Source of the DNA: a virus
Taxonomy: Duplodnaviria > Heunggongvirae > Uroviricota > Caudoviricetes
Reading direction: 5' to 3' (one strand)
IMG/VR virus record: IMGVR_UViG_2671180676_000004
Coordinates: 1-64,000 of that record
DNA length: 64,000 bases
In this document: in pieces, positions 147 through 63,619 of the stretch
Layout of the letters: the number at the start of each line of letters is the position of its first letter
How positions within the stretch are numbered: position 1 is the stretch's first letter
Position numbers and translations under genes: made by a program
Notes under the pieces: model-generated
Told to the model about the DNA's origin: nothing
What the model saw: the letters and a program-made list of their open reading frames with translations, nothing else
Database searches by the model: none

Positions 147-210
147 AGCCTGCTTCTGTATATATAAATAACTACATATTAATTATTAATATACGGAAGC
201 AGGCTGTTTT
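147..210 (+). terminator. Hairpin H copy 1, intrinsic-terminator-like
   Basis: Arms 147-163 / 190-205 (agcctgcttctgtatat … atatacggaagcaggct) with one T·G wobble, AT-rich loop, then GTTTT. Confidence 0.55.
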
Positions 211-26062: not shown

Positions 26063-27622
26063 CTAATCTCGTTTCAGAACTCCAAAATCGAATGCTCCAT
26101 CAATAGGCAATACACCTTCTGCAAAGCCAGGTGTGGTGTCGATGATGTGTTTTCGCTCATAAGAGTGAGACAACAGGTATTTGTTGCTAATGTCAATGAA
26201 ATCAGTGATAAAACACACGTTTGCCTGATTTTTTTTGGCTCGTAAGCCACGACCGACACGCTGCCTCATTTCAACTTCTGCTTTCCCACCACCAGCAAGA
26301 ATGACCGCACCAACGCTTGGCACATCAACACCGACATCCAGAATAGTCGAGCCTATTAAAACATCTATTTCTCCAGACGCTAAACTGTTCAGCTTTGCTT
26401 GCCTTGTCGCCTGGTTAGATTCCCCATAGATGAAGTCAACTCTAAGGCCGGACTCTTTCATCATTTCCATCAGGATTTGCCCGTGGCGTTTAAGACGAAC
26501 CAGAGTCATACAATTGAGAGAATGTTGCTTATAGAGCAATGCTTCGCGAACAATGGCCTCGTTACGTCCCAAATTATACACGATCCCCAACTGATAAGCC
26601 TTTTGGTAGGCGGTGCTCATACCAACTCTAAAATTGAGGTGTTTGTTGGCAAGTTCGGCCTTGATTCTGGCCTCGTCTGGCTTGTAGGCAACTTTATGAT
26701 AAAGGAAGTACGGCTTTGCCAGAATGCCTCGATCAATCAGGTACTTTTCTGTGACTTTAATTTCAATTCGCCCGGCCACCGCCATCAGGCGCATGTTGGC
26801 TTCCGTCGAATCCTTCATGAACGGCGTGGCTGTAAGCGCCAGACGATAGTCTGCGTTCACACATAATCTGGCGATGTCATAGAAATTTGAGCCTGAAGAC
26901 TCATGCGCCTCTTCCAGAATAAGAAGAGAGACACTTGAAAGGAAGCGTTTCACCAACTCCCGACGTTTGAGGTGGTAGCTTTTCTTATCTGGTGTTGCAT
27001 CGCGTGGTGGTTCTTCGAGGAAACTTGCAAGAGTTTGAACTGTAGCGACGTTGATATGTCGTGATACCTGGAACTCACCCGAGCCAATGACTCCAACCTT
27101 TTGGTCTTTTAACCACGGTTCGCCATTTTCGGCGCGGTAGTCGATGGATCTCTGGAAGTTTTCGGCCATTTGAAACATCAGAACAGAGCGGGTTGTTAAA
27201 AATAATGTCATTCGACCGATACGTGCAGCTGCTTTGCAGGCAACGTTAGATTTCCCGCCACCAGTAGCGATCTGCGCAATCATCATTCCCTCTCGAACCA
27301 GTGTTTCCACAGTCTGATCCTGATACGCATAATCAGGATTGTATGGGAATGGGTTAACCGCAGGATTTGGTTTACCAAGCGCCGGGGCTTTGTCTTTGCG
27401 GATATGAACACATTTGATGCCCGCCTTGTTCAAGTTCGCCGCTACAGGCTTGGCAAAGCCAGCAGGGAACGAGTTTTTACTCCAGTTGAACATCGTGCTT
27501 GTGCCCTTCCAGTCGCCAGTCTCGACTTCGTAGCTCAACATCTGTTGCACCATTTGCTTTACCTTGTCATCTGCGCCAGAAATAAGCGCATTAACTGCGT
27601 TAGATACAATCCGAACAGTCAT
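26063..27622 (-). CDS. SF2 DEAD/DEAH-box-type helicase
   Basis: Motif I ATGGGKS, motif II LEEAHE, motif VI QRVGRGLR. Confidence 0.8.
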   Translation of the reverse strand: MTVRIVSNAVNALISGADDKVKQMVQQMLSYEVETGDWKGTSTMFNWSKNSFPAGFAKPVAANLNKAGIKCVHIRKDKAPALGKPNPAVNPFPYNPDYAYQDQTVETLVREGMMIAQIATGGGKSNVACKAAARIGRMTLFLTTRSVLMFQMAENFQRSIDYRAENGEPWLKDQKVGVIGSGEFQVSRHINVATVQTLASFLEEPPRDATPDKKSYHLKRRELVKRFLSSVSLLILEEAHESSGSNFYDIARLCVNADYRLALTATPFMKDSTEANMRLMAVAGRIEIKVTEKYLIDRGILAKPYFLYHKVAYKPDEARIKAELANKHLNFRVGMSTAYQKAYQLGIVYNLGRNEAIVREALLYKQHSLNCMTLVRLKRHGQILMEMMKESGLRVDFIYGESNQATRQAKLNSLASGEIDVLIGSTILDVGVDVPSVGAVILAGGGKAEVEMRQRVGRGLRAKKNQANVCFITDFIDISNKYLLSHSYERKHIIDTTPGFAEGVLPIDGAFDFGVLKRD

Positions 27623-27668
27623 AAACCTCTTTCCTTAGTGCCTTTTGTATGTTATTTGGCTATTATAA

Positions 27669-27687
27669 TAAGTAAGTGATTACTTAG
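27669..27687. repeat. Motif B copy (taagtaagtgattacttag)
   Basis: In the divergent region between the helicase and ParB-like operons. Confidence 0.5.
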
Positions 27688-27704
27688 TGGATTGTAGCAA
27701 TAAA

Positions 27705-28385
27705 ATGGATGTAAAAATCACGATTTTGCAGGTTGATGTTGCCAACCTTCGCCCGAATACCTGGAACACCAATTCGGTTGGTGCGCAGAATTTTGAAAAA
27801 CTGAAAGGTTCTATCGAAAAATTGGGCTTTTTTAAGCCAATTTTGGCTCGTGAACTTGAAGATGGATTTTTTGAAATCCTCGGCGGCGAACATCGCTGGC
27901 GTGCTGCTATTGAGCAAGGAATTTCAACGGTTCCGGTGCTTTCTGTGGGCAAAATTAGCGATGTCGTAGCTAAACAGATGTCACTGGTGGACAACGAGCG
28001 ATACGGTGAAGACGACCAAATCGCATTGCAACGCTTCATTGAAGAAATTCAGTCAGAACTTGACTATCAACTGTCTGAAATCGCCCCGTATGACGACGAA
28101 ATCTCGATGGTTTTAGCAAAAGAGGCGGCAATCGACCTTGAAGCACTGGAGGCGTTGTCTCGTGGTAGTGATGAGCCTGTCGATACCGACAAACGAGAGA
28201 AAACCGAACGTGTGGGTGCGGAACATCAGACCATGCGCTTCAAAGTAACTTTCGATGCGTCAGATCGTGTTGCAGAAACCATAAAAAACATCATCAAAGA
28301 GCAGGCTATTAACACCGGTAATGAAATGGAGAACGCTGGTGAGGCTCTGGTGTGGCTGGTCGACTACTACAAGGAGCGTATGTAA
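27705..28385 (+). CDS. ParB/Srx-like nuclease-domain protein
   Basis: ParB N-domain motif GGEHRWRAA. Confidence 0.7.
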   Translation: MDVKITILQVDVANLRPNTWNTNSVGAQNFEKLKGSIEKLGFFKPILARELEDGFFEILGGEHRWRAAIEQGISTVPVLSVGKISDVVAKQMSLVDNERYGEDDQIALQRFIEEIQSELDYQLSEIAPYDDEISMVLAKEAAIDLEALEALSRGSDEPVDTDKREKTERVGAEHQTMRFKVTFDASDRVAETIKNIIKEQAINTGNEMENAGEALVWLVDYYKERM

Positions 28386-29053
28386 TGACCAAAAAGTTTG
28401 AAATCGTATATCGCGACCCGGCAGATCTTATTCCCTATGAGATGAATGCCAAAAAGCATGATGAACAGCAGATCCGAGATCTGGCCGCAGCCATTAAAAA
28501 GCGCGGATTTGACCAGCCAATTACGGTCGATAAGAACGACGTAATTATTACTGGCCACGGCCGCCGTGAGGCTGCAATTTTTGCTGGACTTGAGCGCGTA
28601 CCGGTTATTGTTCGCGATGATCTCAGTGATGACGAGGTTCGTGCGAAGCGCCTTGAAGATAACCGACTTGCCAGCATTGATTACGATGCAATTAAGCTAC
28701 AGAAAGAGCTTGAGTCGCTTGTTCTGGACGATATCGAGGTTTTCGGCTTTGAAGAGCGTGAGTTGAATGTTCTCGTTGGCAGTATGACAGAAGAAATGGA
28801 CACCGACTCGCTAGTTATCGATCTTGGCGAAGAAACTAAACGACAGAAGGATGAACACACCGAGATCAGTCGTGAAGTTGCAGCGGAAGAAGTACGTGTT
28901 GTCGACGTATTGGGCTTTAAAACGCTCCCTGCTGGCTCTGCCATTGTTGTTGGTGATTTGCTTGCCCATATGGAAGAAATGACGGGAGAAAGCGGGGTAG
29001 ACGCATTTGTGGCATATGCGGAGAAGATCTCTTCCGGGGAGATGGCTGCATGA
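28385..29053 (+). CDS. ParB/Srx-like domain protein (paralogue)
   Basis: Motif TGHGRREAA; ATG overlaps the upstream stop (TAATG); SD AAGGAG. Confidence 0.7.
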   Translation: MTKKFEIVYRDPADLIPYEMNAKKHDEQQIRDLAAAIKKRGFDQPITVDKNDVIITGHGRREAAIFAGLERVPVIVRDDLSDDEVRAKRLEDNRLASIDYDAIKLQKELESLVLDDIEVFGFEERELNVLVGSMTEEMDTDSLVIDLGEETKRQKDEHTEISREVAAEEVRVVDVLGFKTLPAGSAIVVGDLLAHMEEMTGESGVDAFVAYAEKISSGEMAA

Positions 29054-29715
29054 GCAAATACATCATCAACATATCGTTTCAGACACGCGTAAATAAAACC
29101 ACGCGCACGTTGGAAATCGCTGAGTCGTTCGGGCTTGGCCTGGACGAAAAAGAGTGGACGCTTTACGACAATCTGGAGCTGGAAGTGAAGCAGGGCGATG
29201 TGGTGTACATCACCGGCCAATCCGGTTCCGGCAAATCCGTTGTGCTGCGCGAGTTGCAACGACAGATGAAGGATGAAGGGCTGTCTGTAGCCTCCATCGA
29301 TGATTTTACCTTCGATAATGAGGTTAACGTCATCGATCAGTTGGGCAAAACGACCAGTGATGCGCTTGGGTTGTTATCTATGGCTGGTCTGAACGATGCA
29401 TATCTGTTTGTTCGCAAGCCTTCTGAAATGTCAGACGGCCAGAAATATCGTCTCAAGATTGCCAAACTGATTGAGTCAGGCGCTAAAGTGTGGGCTGCTG
29501 ACGAGTTCGGCGCTGTTCTCGACCGTGTAACCGCTCAGGTTGTGGCGTCTAACCTCCAGCGTGCCGCGCGAAAGGTTGGTGCGACGGTAATGGTGGCGAC
29601 GACTCACGAAGACCTGAAGAACGCGCTGCGCCCGGATATGCAGATCACCAAGCACTACAAAGAACGCGTGAAGGTGGAATATCACAATGGTAGTCATGAT
29701 GAGGTCCATTCATGA
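29050..29715 (+). CDS. ABC-type ATPase (nucleotide-binding-domain-like)
   Basis: Walker A GQSGSGKS, signature-like SDGQKYRL, Walker B VWAADEF, H-loop ATTHE; ATGA overlap. Confidence 0.65.
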   Translation: MSKYIINISFQTRVNKTTRTLEIAESFGLGLDEKEWTLYDNLELEVKQGDVVYITGQSGSGKSVVLRELQRQMKDEGLSVASIDDFTFDNEVNVIDQLGKTTSDALGLLSMAGLNDAYLFVRKPSEMSDGQKYRLKIAKLIESGAKVWAADEFGAVLDRVTAQVVASNLQRAARKVGATVMVATTHEDLKNALRPDMQITKHYKERVKVEYHNGSHDEVHS

Positions 29716-30602
29716 CGGACATCATCATTAAACGCTACCGCCCTGAAGAGTTTCCGCGTCATCTGGACTTTCTGGAGCGAATGACTGTTACAAAGGGAAC
29801 TGTAGAGGACTGGCACGCTCTTAAGTCGCTTCACTACAAAACAGACGGCAAACCTTTCGCGCCAACTTACTATCGCTGCGAACTTGATGACCGTCTGGTG
29901 GGCGTCGTGGTTATGGCTTACCCGAAACTACTGTTGGCACCTCGCCACCGCATGTTTCCTAAGTTGAAACCAACCACTAATACCACCGTGGCTAACCAGT
30001 ACTGGGGTCGGTACGTGAATAACAACTTTGCGGTGATCAGTCGCTCAGTTGTGGATACTCAGTATCGTGGCGTAGGCGTCTCTTATCGAATGATTAACCT
30101 GGTTAGCAGGATGCATGACCGGCCAATCATTGAGATCCAGTCCTCGATGAGCAAATACAATCCCTTCGCCATGAAAGCAGGGTTTAAGTTCATCCGCCCT
30201 GAGCGACCGAAGAGCTATGAAAGTGCACTGCGTGTATTCCAGCGCCATTTTCGTTCCGACCCGGGTGATAACGAGGCGATCGTCAAAGAGTTGTTCGCAA
30301 TGAGCGAGTCTCGTCGTCGCCGTGCACTGCGTGATCTGGTGGCGGACTACCATAAGAACAGTTCCCTGGCAAAAGCTGGGCGGAATCGTGGCACGACGAT
30401 TCAGGACATTGCCGACAGTCTGGTGGACGAGGCCAGCATTGTGAAGTTGCTCAAGGACATTCACAACCTGAGCTTTACGTCTCCGTTGTATGGGGTGTAT
30501 CGAAACCCTGACTTTGGTCGTCGACTGCCTGACACGCTGCCACTGCTGGCATTCGACAAACAACCTTTGGATAAACCGTTAGAAATTGCTTTACCGGCAT
30601 AA
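29712..30602 (+). CDS. GNAT-fold acetyltransferase-like protein with C-terminal extension
   Basis: GNAT motif A-like QYRGVGVSYRMI and motif B-like NPFAMKAGFKFI. Confidence 0.4.
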   Translation: MTDIIIKRYRPEEFPRHLDFLERMTVTKGTVEDWHALKSLHYKTDGKPFAPTYYRCELDDRLVGVVVMAYPKLLLAPRHRMFPKLKPTTNTTVANQYWGRYVNNNFAVISRSVVDTQYRGVGVSYRMINLVSRMHDRPIIEIQSSMSKYNPFAMKAGFKFIRPERPKSYESALRVFQRHFRSDPGDNEAIVKELFAMSESRRRRALRDLVADYHKNSSLAKAGRNRGTTIQDIADSLVDEASIVKLLKDIHNLSFTSPLYGVYRNPDFGRRLPDTLPLLAFDKQPLDKPLEIALPA

Positions 30603-30611
30603 GGATTTGCC

Positions 30612-30878
30612 ATGACGTTAACCGATAAACAAAAGGACATCATCAAAACGCTCAATCTCGGTTATGAGCGAGGTCATCTACTTGATCTGGACGAATTGCT
30701 TGAAGTTTTGCCGTACAAGACAACCAAGCAAAGTATCCAGTTCTCAATTCGCGCTCTGATAAAAAAGGGGCTTGTGGAGAAAGGGCATACGCGCCAACGC
30801 AGTGACAATCGCTATCACCGCCGAACTCTTGGGTTAACCACTTTAGGTCGAGCCAAAGCGAAGTTACTGGTGATGTAA
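30612..30878 (+). CDS. Small basic putative winged-helix DNA-binding protein
   Basis: 88 aa; last gene of the coupled operon; followed by hairpin H2. Confidence 0.4.
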   Translation: MTLTDKQKDIIKTLNLGYERGHLLDLDELLEVLPYKTTKQSIQFSIRALIKKGLVEKGHTRQRSDNRYHRRTLGLTTLGRAKAKLLVM

Positions 30879-30900
30879 TCGGTCTGGGAGCTTATTTAAA

Positions 30901-30960
30901 GACCTGCTTCTGTATATATAAATAATAAGTAACTTATTAAATATATACGGAAGCAGGCTT
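30901..30960 (+). terminator. Hairpin H copy 2
   Basis: cctgcttctgtatatat … atatatacggaagcagg with the same T·G wobble; nested inside outer inverted repeat ggtctggg (30881-30888) / cccagacc (30972-30979). Confidence 0.5.
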
Positions 30961-30994
30961 AATAAGACATGCCCAGACCTAATTAAACAACCCA

Positions 30995-31035
30995 GAAAAC
31001 AAGTTGGTTAGAAAATGCAGTAAACAAGTTGTTTT
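30995..31035 (+). promoter_or_regulatory. Tandem motif A copies upstream of the small terminase gene
   Basis: gaaaacaagttgg and aaacaagttgtttt, followed by palindrome agagcgc-atggac-gcgctct. Confidence 0.4.
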
Positions 31036-31074
31036 AGAGCGCATGGACGCGCTCTGTGTGTTTTAGAGGGATCT

Positions 31075-31707
31075 ATGACGGTCGAAAAAGACGAGGTAAA
31101 AACTCGCCTGACACCAGCGGAGTGGGCCGAAGCTGAAGCCAAATGGACGTCAGGCGAATATACACTCTCAAAGCTGGAGGAAGAGTACGGCATTCGTCGT
31201 GAAACACTCTCCAGACATTTCAAAAAGCGAGGATTAGAGAAAGGCGCGGACTCTGTTGGGAAGATGGTTCGTGAGTCTCTTAAATCTGACGCAGAGCTTC
31301 GCGCTAAAGCCCGTGCGGAAAAGATAGAAGAACGTCGTACACGTTATGACGGCTGGGCGTATGCGTTGGGGCAGATGGTGATGGTCGAAGTCACTACGGC
31401 CAAACGTGAGGGTAAGCCTTTAGGGGCGATTGAGGATTCTCTCAAGAGCTTACAGAGAGCCAGTAATACCCTTGCAAAATGCTTTGAAGTTTCGTCCAAA
31501 GCATTGGGCATGGATCATGCGGAAAATGACGAGGAAGAAATTCCGAACCTGGTATTTGGTGAGCTTACGCCTTCCCAGGTGGCGAAATTACGTCAGGAAG
31601 ACGACGAGCCTGAAATCATCGATGACGAATTGCTTGAGACGTTGGAAGAAGAAGCTCTAAGCGAATTTGATGCGACAGATGATGGAAGTGAAGGGGAGGA
31701 CGAATAA
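31075..31707 (+). CDS. Terminase small subunit (putative)
   Basis: 210 aa directly upstream of and overlapping TerL; acidic C-terminus. Confidence 0.55.
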   Translation: MTVEKDEVKTRLTPAEWAEAEAKWTSGEYTLSKLEEEYGIRRETLSRHFKKRGLEKGADSVGKMVRESLKSDAELRAKARAEKIEERRTRYDGWAYALGQMVMVEVTTAKREGKPLGAIEDSLKSLQRASNTLAKCFEVSSKALGMDHAENDEEEIPNLVFGELTPSQVAKLRQEDDEPEIIDDELLETLEEEALSEFDATDDGSEGEDE

Positions 31708-32963
31708 TGGCAATCCCGTCCTCGCTCAGTCTTGTGCAACTGCATTCTGGACAGATGAAAGTCTTCCAGTCTCCGCATCGATTTAAAGTTGTTTGTGCTG
31801 GTCGACGCTGGGGAAAATCCCGGTTGTCGATCTCCACTATTATTCGTGCGGCGGCAAAGGAAAAAAAGCAAAGGGTCTGGTATGTCGCTCCTACTTACCA
31901 GATGGCTCGCCAGATTTTGTGGGACGATCTACAGGAAGTTCTGCCTCGTAAGTGGGTTAGGAAAAAGAACGACACCACGATGACAATCGTGTTGAAGAAC
32001 GGTTCGGAGATCGCCCTCAAAGGTGCTGATAAGCCTGACACTCTGCGCGGCGTAGCGTTGCATTTTGTAGTGCTTGATGAATTTCAGGATATGAAGGCTG
32101 ACACCTGGTACAAGGTGTTACGACCTACTCTTTCATCGACACGCGGCGGTGCACTGATCATTGGTACGCCAAAAGGTTTCTCGGAATTTCACAAACTGTG
32201 GACTATAGGCCAGAACGTAGAGCTGCAAAGAAAGGGACAGTGGAAGAGCTGGCAGTTTGTAACTGCCGATTCTCCGTTTGTGCCTACGGCGGAAATTGAA
32301 GCTGCTAAGAACGATATGGACCCGAAATCGTTCGCTCAGGAGTACCTGGCGAGCTTTGAGAACATGTCCGGGCGCGTTTACTACCCGTTCGATCGTAACG
32401 TGCATGTAAAACCGCTTCAGTTCAACCCTCGGTTGCCTATATGGGTAGGGCAGGACTTCAACATTGACCCGATGTCTTCAGTAATTTTGCAACCTCAGCC
32501 AAATGGTGAGCTATGGGCAATTGATGAATTGGTGCTCTTTTCCTCTAACACGGCAGAGGTTTGTGATGAGCTTGAGAGACGCTTCTGGCGCTGGAAATCA
32601 CAGATAACGGTATTTCCAGATCCGGCAGGTGCTTATCGCCAACATGCTCGCGGGGAGTCTGACGTCGACATATTCAAAGAGAAGGGATTCTTACGTGTCG
32701 ATTATTCGAAAAAGCACCCGCCAATTGCGGATCGTGTTAATGCTGTTAACCGAATGCTGATGACCGCATCTGGAGATATCCGGTTGTATATCGATCCGAA
32801 GTGCAAGCATTTGATTGATTCACTGGAAAAAGTCATCTACAAGCCTGGAACACGAGATATGGATAAGACAGGTGGCATTGAGCATAGTGCAGACGCATTG
32901 GGCTATCCAGTACATCGTAGGTATCCAGTCAAAAACCGTGTTATTCTTGGTGGTTCTCGATAG
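31707..32963 (+). CDS. Terminase large subunit
   Basis: Walker A-like VVCAGRRWGKS; C-terminal acidic nuclease-type segment. Confidence 0.85.
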   Translation: MAIPSSLSLVQLHSGQMKVFQSPHRFKVVCAGRRWGKSRLSISTIIRAAAKEKKQRVWYVAPTYQMARQILWDDLQEVLPRKWVRKKNDTTMTIVLKNGSEIALKGADKPDTLRGVALHFVVLDEFQDMKADTWYKVLRPTLSSTRGGALIIGTPKGFSEFHKLWTIGQNVELQRKGQWKSWQFVTADSPFVPTAEIEAAKNDMDPKSFAQEYLASFENMSGRVYYPFDRNVHVKPLQFNPRLPIWVGQDFNIDPMSSVILQPQPNGELWAIDELVLFSSNTAEVCDELERRFWRWKSQITVFPDPAGAYRQHARGESDVDIFKEKGFLRVDYSKKHPPIADRVNAVNRMLMTASGDIRLYIDPKCKHLIDSLEKVIYKPGTRDMDKTGGIEHSADALGYPVHRRYPVKNRVILGGSR

Positions 32964-63534: not shown

Positions 63535-63556
63535 GCATCCTGCTGGTTGAATTTGG

Positions 63557-63619
63557 AACCTGCTTCTGTATATAAATACTAAGTTACTTATTATTATTTA
63601 TACGGAAGCAGGTCTTTTT
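63557..63619 (+). terminator. Hairpin H copy 3, intrinsic terminator
   Basis: acctgcttctgtatataaata … tatttatacggaagcaggt, same T·G wobble, then TTTTT. Confidence 0.6.

Follow-up and report, generated by a model that had tools for sequence, protein, structure and literature searches.

Gene layout and flanking palindromes

The window (the whole 64-kb stretch of DNA that was analysed) is an SSU5-like phage-plasmid in which a block of five ORFs, all on the + strand, lies directly 5′ of the terS-terL-portal genes. The block and its surroundings are made up of the following features:

26063–27622, − strand: helicase gene, upstream of and divergent from g1, with an 82-nt intergenic region
27665–27686: upstream cis site, 11-mer ATAATAAGTAA plus inverted repeat
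27705–28385, + strand: g1, 226 aa
28385–29053, + strand: g2, 222 aa
29050–29715, + strand: g3, 221 aa
29712–30602, + strand: g4, 296 aa
30612–30878, + strand: g5, 88 aa
30881–30979 (~100 bp): long imperfect palindrome between g5 and terS
31075–31707, + strand: terS-like gene, conserved downstream neighbour outside the block
31707–32963, + strand: terL, conserved downstream neighbour outside the block

The starts of g1 to g5 are those of the phage Cyrano annotation. Successive genes are joined by a TAATG overlap (g1/g2) or by ATGA overlaps (g2/g3 and g3/g4), g4 and g5 are separated by a 9-nt gap, and a Shine-Dalgarno-like purine run is found 5′ of the start at each junction. The terS/terL calls are based on matches to phrog_867 (E 2e-100) and Terminase_6N (E 3e-9). 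In the explanation we favour, the rightward late transcription unit of the SSU5-type phage-plasmid begins with the cistrons of this block. A preliminary description of this DNA had reported five translationally coupled genes immediately upstream of the packaging genes, starting at a 'motif B' site and ending at a hairpin, 'H2'. Apart from the gap between g4 and g5, ORFs and junctions were located where it had placed them, and the two boundary elements correspond to the cis site and the palindrome listed above; its choice of GTG 27687 as the start of g1 was not retained, ATG 27705 being more likely.

At the upstream site, the 11-mer ATAATAAGTAA (27665–27675) overlaps an inverted repeat (TAAGTAA-GTGA-TTACTTA, 27669–27686). 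Exact repeats of the 11-mer occur at 30922, which is the middle of the palindrome 3′ of g5, and, on the − strand, at 63584, and when up to one mismatch is allowed the window contains four matches versus 1.05 expected. The upstream site may act as an operator or promoter element. The downstream palindrome has an AT-rich centre and its strong arms are at 30899–30961 (arms, CCTGCTTCYGTATAT; within the centre, ATAATAAGTAACTTAT). Near-identical copies of it are present at 148–205 and 63555–63616, and three distant relatives (L002, L003 and L140) carry other long palindromes at the equivalent position.

Two ParB paralogues, a split ABC–GNAT enzyme and a small basic protein

The first two genes encode acidic ParB/Srx NTPase-fold proteins that have kept the NTP-binding motifs. 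g1 (labelled 'partition protein' in RefSeq) is of type A (pI 4.55; motifs GGEHRWRAA and DNERYG) and matches Pfam ParB_N (E 3.3e-13, above the Pfam cut-off) and phrog_723 (E 2e-79), its best solved relative being Spo0J (1vz0, E 2.7e-9, with box II aligned). g2 is of type B (pI 4.53; motif GHGRR.AA) and matches ParB_N (E 1.5e-8, also above the Pfam cut-off) and phrog_930 (E 1e-112). In addition, the ParB domain of g2 and the helices that follow resemble the N-terminal part of ParB–DNA-methyltransferase fusions (phrog_498, E 5e-32), and g2 matches the PADLOC model MTase_II (E 2.9e-17). In an AlphaFold2 (AF2) model of g2 (pLDDT 81), a helical linker joins the nucleotide-binding domain (pLDDT >90) to a small C-terminal domain; the model matches the structures of Noc, ParB-CDP and KorB in Foldseek. 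ParB_N was the sole domain found by Pfam in g1 and g2, and no HTH was detected in either.

g3 is a stand-alone ABC-type ATPase (Pfam ABC_tran, E 5.8e-13) with intact Walker A (GQSGSGKS), signature (MSDGQ), Walker B (WAADE), D-loop (AVLD) and H-loop (TTHE) motifs; a match to CbiA/ParA (E 0.0017) was below the cut-off. It aligns to the N-terminal halves of fused ABC–GNAT proteins of 450–500 aa at E 1e-40 to 7e-64, and to transporter ATPase domains of the PDB at ~1e-13. The adjoining gene, g4, encodes a basic protein (pI 9.8) with a GNAT-fold acyltransferase domain (residues ~25–165), in which the acyl-CoA binding motif is complete, and a C-terminal helical domain (~170–296). Since g3 and g4 match the N- and C-terminal halves of the same proteins (residues ~1–220 and ~200–480, respectively), sequence comparison identifies them as one enzyme, the split form of a widespread viral ABC-ATPase–GNAT fusion. 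Some relatives are fused to family-B DNA polymerase domains.

Two other assignments were rejected. An ABC transporter would need partners, and neither permease nor substrate-binding protein genes are found within or near the block, the partner of g3 being the GNAT protein; the 'ABC transporter' annotations in public databases are name transfer. A GNAT/RHH toxin-antitoxin pair of the TacAT/AtaRT type does not fit g4 either, which is 296 aa long, ATPase-coupled and without a DUF1778 neighbour, and PADLOC and Pfam gave no match to components of such pairs in the block.

The product of g5 is strongly basic (pI 10.2) and belongs with phrog_900 (E 2e-45). Its three other profile matches are independent of one another but weak (LexA_DNA_bind, E 0.07; Sta1/Lrs14, E 0.003; a CARF-protein profile, E 4.5e-5), and the alignment of its orthologs has a winged-helix-like pattern, from which g5 is probably a winged-helix DNA-binding protein. 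Together, these Pfam, motif and profile matches bear out the order ParB-like, ParB-like, ABC-ATPase, GNAT-like and winged-helix proposed in the preliminary description, for g5 by way of weak matches.

Recurrence of the cassette beside terminase genes

The block was found in 260 of the 5,426 complete E. coli genomes, and was plasmid-borne every time. The same gene order, at ~40–45% protein identity, is present in Ectothiorhodospira (a chromosomal prophage), in Comamonas and in lytic phages of Pseudomonas, Rhizobium and Stenotrophomonas; in the lytic relatives the block counts as core, and its position is always between the helicase gene and terS. The genes are therefore conserved as a block, against the possibility, raised in the preliminary description, that they are not. 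The number five applies to the E. coli lineage only, however, as in SSU5 and others the block is longer by one to three small ORFs, most of which lie between the ABC and GNAT genes.

A carried defence or superinfection-exclusion system, or a plasmid partition/maintenance system, is hardly probable at all. ParB-superfamily proteins and ABC ATPases are known in defence systems, PADLOC gave weak matches to mad3, mad8 and PtuA, and the element is a plasmid prophage with a RefSeq partition label on g1. However, the PADLOC 2.0 search returned only generic ATPase and methyltransferase-N-terminal-domain matches and none for g4, so that no defence-system model fits g4 or the whole set; the position is invariant, the block is core across ~40% identity divergence, including strictly lytic phages without a plasmid stage, and ParA, HTH and effector nuclease are all absent. 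ParABS partition in particular was rejected. What g1 and g2 have in common with ParABS is a ParB/Srx NTPase fold at the N-terminus that includes box II and box III-like motifs, but they are acidic and without an HTH match, and the ATPase is of ABC type. Partition is excluded by the absence of ParA and by the core status of the block in strictly lytic relatives.

The order ParB → ABC–GNAT → terminase also occurs in Streptococcus phiNIH1.1, Lactococcus P335, Gordonia Axumite (genes 1–4), Leptospira LE3, Pseudoalteromonas SL25 and marine contigs, with the ParB gene immediately 5′ of ABC–GNAT and the terminase and portal genes following. Rhodococcus phage Jace has the cassette, separated from terS by three opposite-strand genes, and in two Planctomycete loci the ParB gene is adjacent to ABC–GNAT (L011) or ~1.1 kb apart (L013), a terminase being confirmed at neither. 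Overall, a ParB gene lies beside ABC–GNAT in at least eight unrelated lineages, and the cassette is found with different terminase families (Terminase_6N and PBSX-type); it is a widespread cassette, not peculiar to the SSU5-like element. The single ParB of the Streptococcus, Lactococcus, Gordonia, Rhodococcus and SL25 cassettes matches the type-B profile best (down to E 3e-38), that of Leptospira LE3 matches type B weakly and type A slightly better, and the ParBs beside ABC–GNAT in Planctomycetes are of type A. The position of g5 is kept throughout the SSU5 supergroup and the gene is absent from the ParB–ABC–GNAT cassettes elsewhere. It may not belong to the enzyme module, and could have its site of action in the palindromic region 3′ of the block.

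The variable neighbours of the cassette belong to acyl or small-molecule chemistry and are not structural proteins: an ASCH domain in Streptococcus, a formyltransferase in Gordonia and Porphyromonas, and an aspartate decarboxylase (PanD) with a CoA-transferase III in Jace. YqfB enzymes, which are of the ASCH type, are hydrolases of N4-acyl-(deoxy)cytidines (PMC9599836). In a virus group that is probably archaeal, the fused ABC–GNAT gene comes straight after TerL, overlapping it by 4 nt, and ParB is absent from this TerL-linked group. Among 79 IMG/VR loci, the immediate same-strand upstream gene is TerL in at least 35, and many upstream neighbours overlap by 4 nt, suggesting translational coupling.

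Such proximity could also mean that the module is a packaging accessory, in which ParBs and ABC–GNAT would help the terminase to recognise, load or process concatemers without any base modification, either as a pac-site/initiation complex or through acylation of terminase, portal or capsid. The module does sit beside terminase genes across the lineages examined (with L011 and L013 unconfirmed), the IMG/VR loci and their overlaps point the same way, the palindrome between block and terS is conserved in position, the ends of the linear SSU5 and Cyrano records fall within it, and the ParB-less, TerL-linked fused gene of the probably archaeal group fits a packaging role equally well. We nevertheless consider this decidedly unlikely: the formyltransferase, PanD plus CoA-transferase and ASCH neighbours indicate small-molecule acyl chemistry on a base-like substrate, several terminase families accompany the cassette, which is thus not a fixed subunit of one machine, a separate terS-like gene exists, and the enzyme has its full acyl-CoA motif.

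Putative ATP-dependent acylation of DNA

That an ABC-coupled GNAT acylates a DNA nucleobase was predicted by the Aravind group (Iyer, Zhang, Burroughs & Aravind 2013, as related in section 3.4.7 of PMC7824862), with Tenacibaculum phage pT24 as an example. As far as that section describes it, the predicted system has the same two catalytic domains, which in the SSU5-type block are encoded by adjacent, translationally coupled genes, and it shares the viral context, pT24 itself being among our tblastn matches. Going by the same account, the SSU5-type block differs in that the enzyme is split in two, the GNAT half carrying an extra C-terminal helical domain, in that two ParB paralogues and a winged-helix gene are added, and in that it always stands first in the packaging/late operon. 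By its sequence, the block is a variant of a computationally predicted system. The preliminary description had not recognised the combination as a described one; this stands for the SSU5-type architecture (two ParBs, split enzyme, winged-helix gene) which, with the systematic terminase link, is undescribed as far as we found, but not for the pairing of ABC and GNAT, predicted in 2013, nor for the activation of a phage base-modifying enzyme by a ParB, which has been shown.

In the latter case (O'Toole et al. 2026, PMC13229309), a phage thymine dioxygenase acts on dsDNA only when activated by its cognate ParB-like protein, which has no DNA-binding domain; this requirement is known only for 5mYOX176/ParB176. 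ParB176 consists of a nucleotide-binding and a C-terminal domain and lacks a DNA-binding domain, a layout shared by the model of g2, and its gene adjoins that of a post-replicative base-modifying enzyme, just as the ParB genes lie beside ABC–GNAT. Moreover, thymine dioxygenases form ParB-dependent and ParB-independent subclasses, paralleled here by the bacterial-phage cassettes and the ParB-less TerL-linked group. Unlike in 5mYOX176/ParB176, the SSU5-type partner is a predicted ABC–GNAT acyltransferase, not an Fe/2OG dioxygenase, and there are two ParB paralogues. ParB_N–DNA methyltransferase fusions (phrog_498; PMC12704722) likewise pair a ParB fold with a DNA-modifying enzyme, whereas the pairing in the block is in trans and with an acyltransferase. 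Phage Mu Mom, a late gene product with a GNAT fold, modifies DNA adenine with an acyl-CoA-derived group. Although Mom is the second-best match of g4 in a viral structure library, the likeness is no better than that to generic GNATs, no sequence-level membership of g4 in the family was apparent, and Mom needs neither an ATPase nor a ParB partner.

The most likely function of the block, to which we give an even chance, is that of a ParB-assisted, ATP-dependent DNA acyl-modification module expressed with packaging, and among the functions offered in the preliminary description (packaging-site recognition, DNA modification, defence or anti-defence) it is DNA modification that is favoured. The acyl donor of the GNAT domain would be an acyl-CoA, in the SSU5-type lineage probably acetyl-CoA, as genes for making a donor are absent from this lineage, and the acyl group would end up on an exocyclic amine of a base in the double-stranded DNA of the phage. 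The ABC dimer, closing and opening as ATP drives it, would do the work of exposing the base or of cycling the enzyme on DNA, by analogy with the ATPase module of the tRNA cytidine acetyltransferase TmcA. g1 and g2 would have no role in segregation but, on the model of the ParB-dependent phage thymine dioxygenases, could be cognate activators or clamps that enable the enzyme on dsDNA. g5 would probably bind the palindromic sites flanking the block and the late operon, setting timing or location, and expression with the terminase, translationally coupled in other lineages, would limit the mark to DNA awaiting packaging. The purpose is likely to be protection against host restriction, or possibly altered DNA charge or packaging properties. 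The strongly basic nature of g4 and g5 speaks for DNA acylation, as does the kinship of g2 to the ParB kind fused to phage DNA methyltransferases. Against it, g3 resembles transporter-type ATPases (CcmA, DevA, LolD, FtsE) and not the DNA-binding SMC, Rad50 or UvrA classes, ASCH domains are RNA-associated too, and neither a donor-synthesis nor a 'reader' gene is present in the SSU5-type block itself. In the literature searched we found neither chemical evidence of a modified base in SSU5-type phages nor a report of acyl transfer to a DNA base by the ABC–GNAT family.

The substrate of the enzyme could instead be a protein or small molecule (e.g. host RNA polymerase, a defence protein, polyamines or a signalling nucleotide), acylated for host takeover or anti-defence with the ParBs as NTP-dependent regulators. 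Acetylation of host RNA polymerase is known from phage GNATs, phiKMV Rac among them (PMC7824862), and ParB folds, which bind a range of NTPs, occur in fusions with many kinds of enzyme (PMC12704722). This is unlikely, as the module is a late-operon, terminase-linked core set rather than an early or variable accessory, is constantly paired with a DNA-associated ParB fold, of which the g2 subtype is common to DNA methyltransferase fusions, and has relatives fused to family-B DNA polymerases.

RNA is a further candidate substrate. In TmcA/NAT10, an NTPase module and a GNAT domain acetylate a nucleic-acid base, and the block, which follows the same ATPase-plus-GNAT logic, might be an ATP-dependent cytidine acetyltransferase of host or phage tRNA. 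N4-acetylcytidine is hydrolysed by ASCH proteins, and in phage nickie genes for tRNA-Met and tRNA-Asn precede the block by ~2 kb. We regard this as very unlikely, since the 64-kb window contains no tRNA genes, g3 is ABC-type and not helicase-type, there is no homology to the helicase or tRNA-binding domains of TmcA, and the linkage to ParB and terminase and the DNA-polymerase fusions point to DNA.

Returning to DNA acylation, a more far-reaching proposal, which we put forward tentatively, is that SSU5-type and many other tailed phages install a never-observed N-acyl base mark (N4-acetyl-deoxycytidine, for example, or a derivative of the aminoacyl/β-alanyl kind) by means of an ATP-driven, ParB-clamp-activated ABC–GNAT. 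Functional coupling to the terminase would then mean that only DNA entering the capsid is marked ('modify as you package'). If true, this marking would extend to Yersinia and Salmonella plasmids of 80–90% identity, which presumably include pMT1 and pHCM2.

Architecture and carriage of the five-gene block

As the preliminary description had it, five co-directional, coupled genes (g1-g5) lie directly upstream of the packaging genes, with a terS-like gene (phrog_867), terL (Terminase_6N) and then the portal gene coming next. The successive junctions are TAATG, ATGA, ATGA and a 9-nt gap, all four being preceded by a purine-rich ribosome-binding stretch. On the other side, a UvsW/DEAD-type helicase gene (26063-27622, - strand) diverges from the block across an 82-nt spacer. 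The block also starts and ends where had been proposed, i.e. at an 11-mer ('motif B') and at a palindrome ('hairpin H2'), respectively, and the 11-mer recurs at the centre of the palindrome.

Features of the block and its borders
27665-27675: 11-mer ATAATAAGTAA ('motif B'), overlapping a small inverted repeat
27705-28385, + strand: g1, ParB/Srx paralogue, ParB_N above Pfam threshold
28385-29053, + strand: g2, ParB/Srx paralogue, ParB_N above Pfam threshold
29050-29715, + strand: g3, complete ABC ATPase
29712-30602, + strand: g4, predicted GNAT half of a split ABC–GNAT protein
30612-30878, + strand: g5, basic protein of 88 aa with weak winged-helix profile matches
30881-30979: imperfect palindrome of ~100 bp ('hairpin H2')

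The g1 and g2 proteins are both acidic (pI 4.5) and fall into two orthologous ParB groups, type A (g1), with the motifs GGxHR..A and DNxRYG, and type B (g2), with GHGRR.AA. No HTH was detected in either protein by domain profile search. In an AF2 model of g2 (pLDDT 81), the ParB/Srx nucleotide-binding domain is predicted with confidence, as is a small helical C-terminal domain, and the helical linker is poorly defined; the structures most similar to the model are those of Noc, ParB-CDP, KorB and PadC. Over its N-terminal part, g2 also matches the module with which phage ParB–DNA-methyltransferase fusions begin (phrog_498, E 5e-32; PADLOC MTase_II, E 2.9e-17). Alignment hinted that g1 and g2 end in an RHH DNA-binding domain, but this had no Pfam support, and the C-terminal domain in the g2 monomer model is helical without any β-strand. 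For g5, three winged-helix profiles gave weak matches, and a winged-helix-like pattern is conserved across its orthologs.

By nucleotide comparison, many E. coli plasmids match the 3.4-kb block region at 100% identity; phages Cyrano, PhiR41_1 (recorded host E. coli K-12) and CMS-2020a share it at 98-99%, and Salmonella phage SSU5 at 85%, which identifies the window as an SSU5-type phage-plasmid. Hundreds of database plasmids carry exactly the same copy of the block as the window. In PLSDB, 792 plasmids have the block, among them 307 from Klebsiella, 237 from Escherichia, 91 from Enterobacter, 62 from Yersinia and 49 from Salmonella; it is also present in 260 of the 5,426 complete E. coli genomes (~5%), where it is plasmid-borne in every case. 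With g1 alone as the query, homolog searching yielded nothing beyond near-identical variants from Klebsiella and E. coli.

The ABC–GNAT family and its gene neighbours

Searching a g4-family profile against 1.84 billion representative proteins yielded 897 relatives, many of which are 450-500 aa long, with the g4-like region at ~200-480 and, according to Pfam, an ABC_tran domain N-terminal to it. The g3 protein matches the N-terminal halves of these long relatives at E 1e-40 to 7e-64, as against ~1e-13 for transporter ATPase domains. Since g3 and g4 match halves of the same long proteins, the coupled pair is a fused ABC-ATPase–GNAT protein in split form. The family is named 'ABC-type ATPase fused to a predicted acetyltransferase domain' by IMG and some phage annotators. 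The ABC transporter of the public annotation can be set aside, given that g3 has no permease partner and that its true kinship is with the N-terminal portions of ABC–GNAT fusions. Four protein representatives (P0176, P0204, P0165 and P0154) are ABC–GNAT relatives predicted in one protein with a family-B DNA polymerase, a LAGLIDADG intein or a TFIIB repeat, which may be gene-calling artefacts.

Within the SSU5 supergroup, i.e. SSU5-type phage-plasmids together with distant relatives that share the block order, the conserved arrangement is helicase (- strand), ParB-A, ParB-B, ABC, GNAT, small winged-helix gene, terS, terL and portal. Conservation as a block, on which the preliminary description had made its reading depend, extends at ~40-45% protein identity to contigs of Ectothiorhodospira and Comamonas and to a prophage within a 3.3-Mb chromosome, and also to lytic siphoviruses of ~105-120 kb (Pseudomonas nickie, Rhizobium RHph_N1_15 and RHEph10, and Stenotrophomonas BUCTxx99). 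The block is a core module of this phage supergroup, not plasmid cargo. Several lineages carry 1-3 unrelated small ORFs inserted mostly between the ABC and GNAT genes, SSU5 having one. At the compared loci L002, L003, L006, L139, L140 and L154 this variable slot encodes Phage_gp49_66, a RyR domain, DUF2829, thioredoxin and other products without assignment, and it is empty in the E. coli lineage of the window.

A tblastn search with a fused ABC–GNAT representative, followed by reading of the neighbourhoods of matches in cultured phages, revealed shorter ABC–GNAT genes in unrelated phages, in the following arrangements.

ABC–GNAT cassettes in unrelated phages and contigs
Streptococcus phiNIH1.1: ParB, ABC, unannotated GNAT ORF, ASCH, TerL, portal
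Lactococcus P335: Orf23 (ParB), Orf24 (ABC), Orf25 (GNAT), TerS, TerL
Gordonia Axumite: genes 1-4, ParB, ABC–GNAT, formyltransferase, terminase
Leptospira LE3: ParB, ABC–GNAT, TerL
Rhodococcus phage Jace: ParB, ABC–GNAT, aspartate decarboxylase, CoA-transferase III, then TerS
Porphyromonas phage: ABC–GNAT, formyltransferase; cassette at record end
Pseudoalteromonas SL25: ParB and ABC–GNAT (both unannotated), then TerL
Marine contigs: ParB, ABC–GNAT, two unassigned genes (231 and 524 aa), DUF4055 protein

By our own reading, the 231- and 524-aa genes and the DUF4055 protein of the marine contigs are the terminase subunits and the portal. ParB is also paired with ABC–GNAT in two Planctomycete loci. 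Type-specific profiles assign the Firmicute, Actinobacterial and SL25 ParBs to type B (down to E 3e-38) and the Planctomycete ParBs to type A, the SSU5 supergroup carrying both. A class of ~396-aa proteins also scores high with the type-B profile (the representative of cluster P0508 stands for 116 sequences); one member, at L152 5001-6191, sits between a small HTH gene and a downstream 532-aa gene, with ABC–GNAT absent, and has a C-terminal half without domain assignment. Public annotation lacks the phiNIH1.1 GNAT ORF (L142 4516-4911) and both SL25 ORFs (L149 2848-4271), and labels Axumite gp3 a 'tRNA-methyltransferase', the profile match being Formyl_trans_N.

Scanning IMG/VR with an alignment of the fused family confirmed 236 contigs, from which 79 loci were analysed. 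TerL is the immediate same-strand upstream gene in at least 35 of the 79, and a 4-nt overlap with the ABC–GNAT gene is common among the upstream neighbours. No ParB was detected within 8 kb of the fused gene in this group. The nearest cellular matches of these ParB-less contigs are Bathyarchaeia and Nitrososphaeria MAGs, so the contigs probably belong to archaeal viruses. The fused gene lies within 300 nt of the 3′ contig edge in 26 of the 79 loci, far above chance, and in no locus does it come within 2 kb of the opposite end; this bias may stem from the trimming of proviruses, from genome termini or from assemblies that break at a hypervariable region further downstream. Among loci L059-L138 from IMG/VR, 19 ABC–GNAT ORFs run off the contig end.

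Proposed function, alternatives and precedents

We give about even chances to the proposal that the block encodes an acyltransferase that depends on ATP, is assisted by ParB and targets phage DNA late in infection. It draws directly on the folds, the intact catalytic motifs, the split-fusion relation, the recurrence of ParB with ABC–GNAT and terminase, and the acyl-chemistry neighbours. The substrate would be phage DNA, the ParBs would act as activators or clamps of the enzyme, g5 could be the factor reading the flanking palindromes, and the purpose might be evasion of restriction. For the SSU5 type, acetyl would be the most economical acyl group because donor-making genes are absent. In Jace, aspartate decarboxylase (PanD) and CoA-transferase III (gp87-gp88, L147 4310-5421) lie directly 3′ of ABC–GNAT, which suggests a β-alanyl group; a formyltransferase gene is found in the same position in Axumite (gp3, L143 1805-2452) and at L146 4385-4858, and such neighbours suggest a further decoration.

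The main rival is a direct role of the block in packaging, which is kept in play by the tight linkage to TerL. This role and DNA acylation are compatible, and an enzyme modifying DNA during packaging would explain both sets of observations; the consistent terminase adjacency raises the separate mechanistic question of modification coupled to packaging. Acylation of a protein, a small molecule or RNA is also possible, since the GNAT fold does not reveal the acceptor; a link to tRNA was rejected, tRNA genes being absent from the window. Plasmid partition was rejected, as the block has neither ParA nor an HTH and is itself core in lytic phages. PADLOC matched no specific known defence system, and the architecture does not fit a GNAT toxin–antitoxin pair (Pfam, PADLOC).

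The view that the block is not a described system held in part. The catalytic pair is of a computationally predicted kind: a paper citing its authors' 2013 survey presents the prediction of DNA-base acylation by ABC-coupled GNATs, with phage pT24 as example (PMC7824862). The architecture of two ParBs, a split enzyme and a winged-helix protein was not found described, and neither was the five-gene block in the literature on SSU5, ParB and phage-plasmids. Literature searches likewise found no experimental work on ABC–GNAT enzymes, no DNA-modification experiments in SSU5-type phages, nothing on COG2401, the fused ABC-type ATPase or N4-acetyldeoxycytidine in phages, and no description of the systematic terminase-adjacent placement across bacterial and probably archaeal viruses or of the contrast between ParB-linked and ParB-less, TerL-coupled forms. 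For Nickievirus, titles and abstracts make functional data unlikely. The ParB partnership does have an experimental precedent, with a different enzyme: O'Toole et al. (2026) describe a phage ParB-like protein as a required, cognate-specific activator of a thymine dioxygenase on dsDNA (PMC13229309), and this protein has nucleotide-binding and C-terminal domains without a DNA-binding domain (PMC13229309). YqfB-type ASCH proteins hydrolyse N4-acetylcytidine and N4-acyl-2′-deoxycytidines (PMC9599836).

If correct, the proposal would make ATP-dependent base acylation a new chemical class of DNA modification and would provide a second case in which ParB-like proteins have been co-opted to activate enzymes that modify DNA. 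The mark could affect restriction evasion, plasmid and phage host range, and the interpretation of native long-read signals. The cassette reaches phages of Proteobacteria, Firmicutes, Actinobacteria, Spirochaetes and Bacteroidota (Porphyromonas, Tenacibaculum), Planctomycete loci and probably archaeal viruses. Since the recorded host of PhiR41_1 is E. coli K-12, a decade-old computational prediction is directly and cheaply testable in a standard host.

Palindromes and repeats around the block

A long palindrome occurs in three copies in the window (148-205, 30899-30961 and 63555-63616; chance expectation 0.08 matches); the arms of the copies are conserved (CCTGCTTCYGTATAT / ATATACRGAAGCAGG) and their centres are AT-rich. 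Copies 2 and 3 bracket the entire + strand packaging/morphogenesis operon (31075-63534). The three copies could be bidirectional terminators or protein-binding sites. The GenBank records of SSU5 and Cyrano are both linearised inside the palindrome (~30939/30940), 1 nt apart, which reflects either a physical genome end/pac region or a convention copied between records. Between palindrome and terS (30983-31056) there are two 25-nt direct repeats with AAACAAGTTG and an overlapping inverted repeat, and a terminator-like GC hairpin with a T run (31035-31056) lies immediately 5′ of the terS start. The 8-mer ACAAGTTG upstream of terS was considered as a conserved site and rejected as probably due to chance, as it is found there in the window, SSU5 and nickie only and also elsewhere in the window. 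Distant relatives have different long palindromes between the winged-helix gene and terS (L002 11175-11289; L003 11181-11322; L140 6621-6705; L154 9394-9600), those of Comamonas consisting of repeated copies of TAGCGCTAACAATTGTTAGCGCTA. Palindromes at the same position in distant relatives suggest an operator or pac-like region that is specific to each lineage and that the neighbouring winged-helix protein may read.
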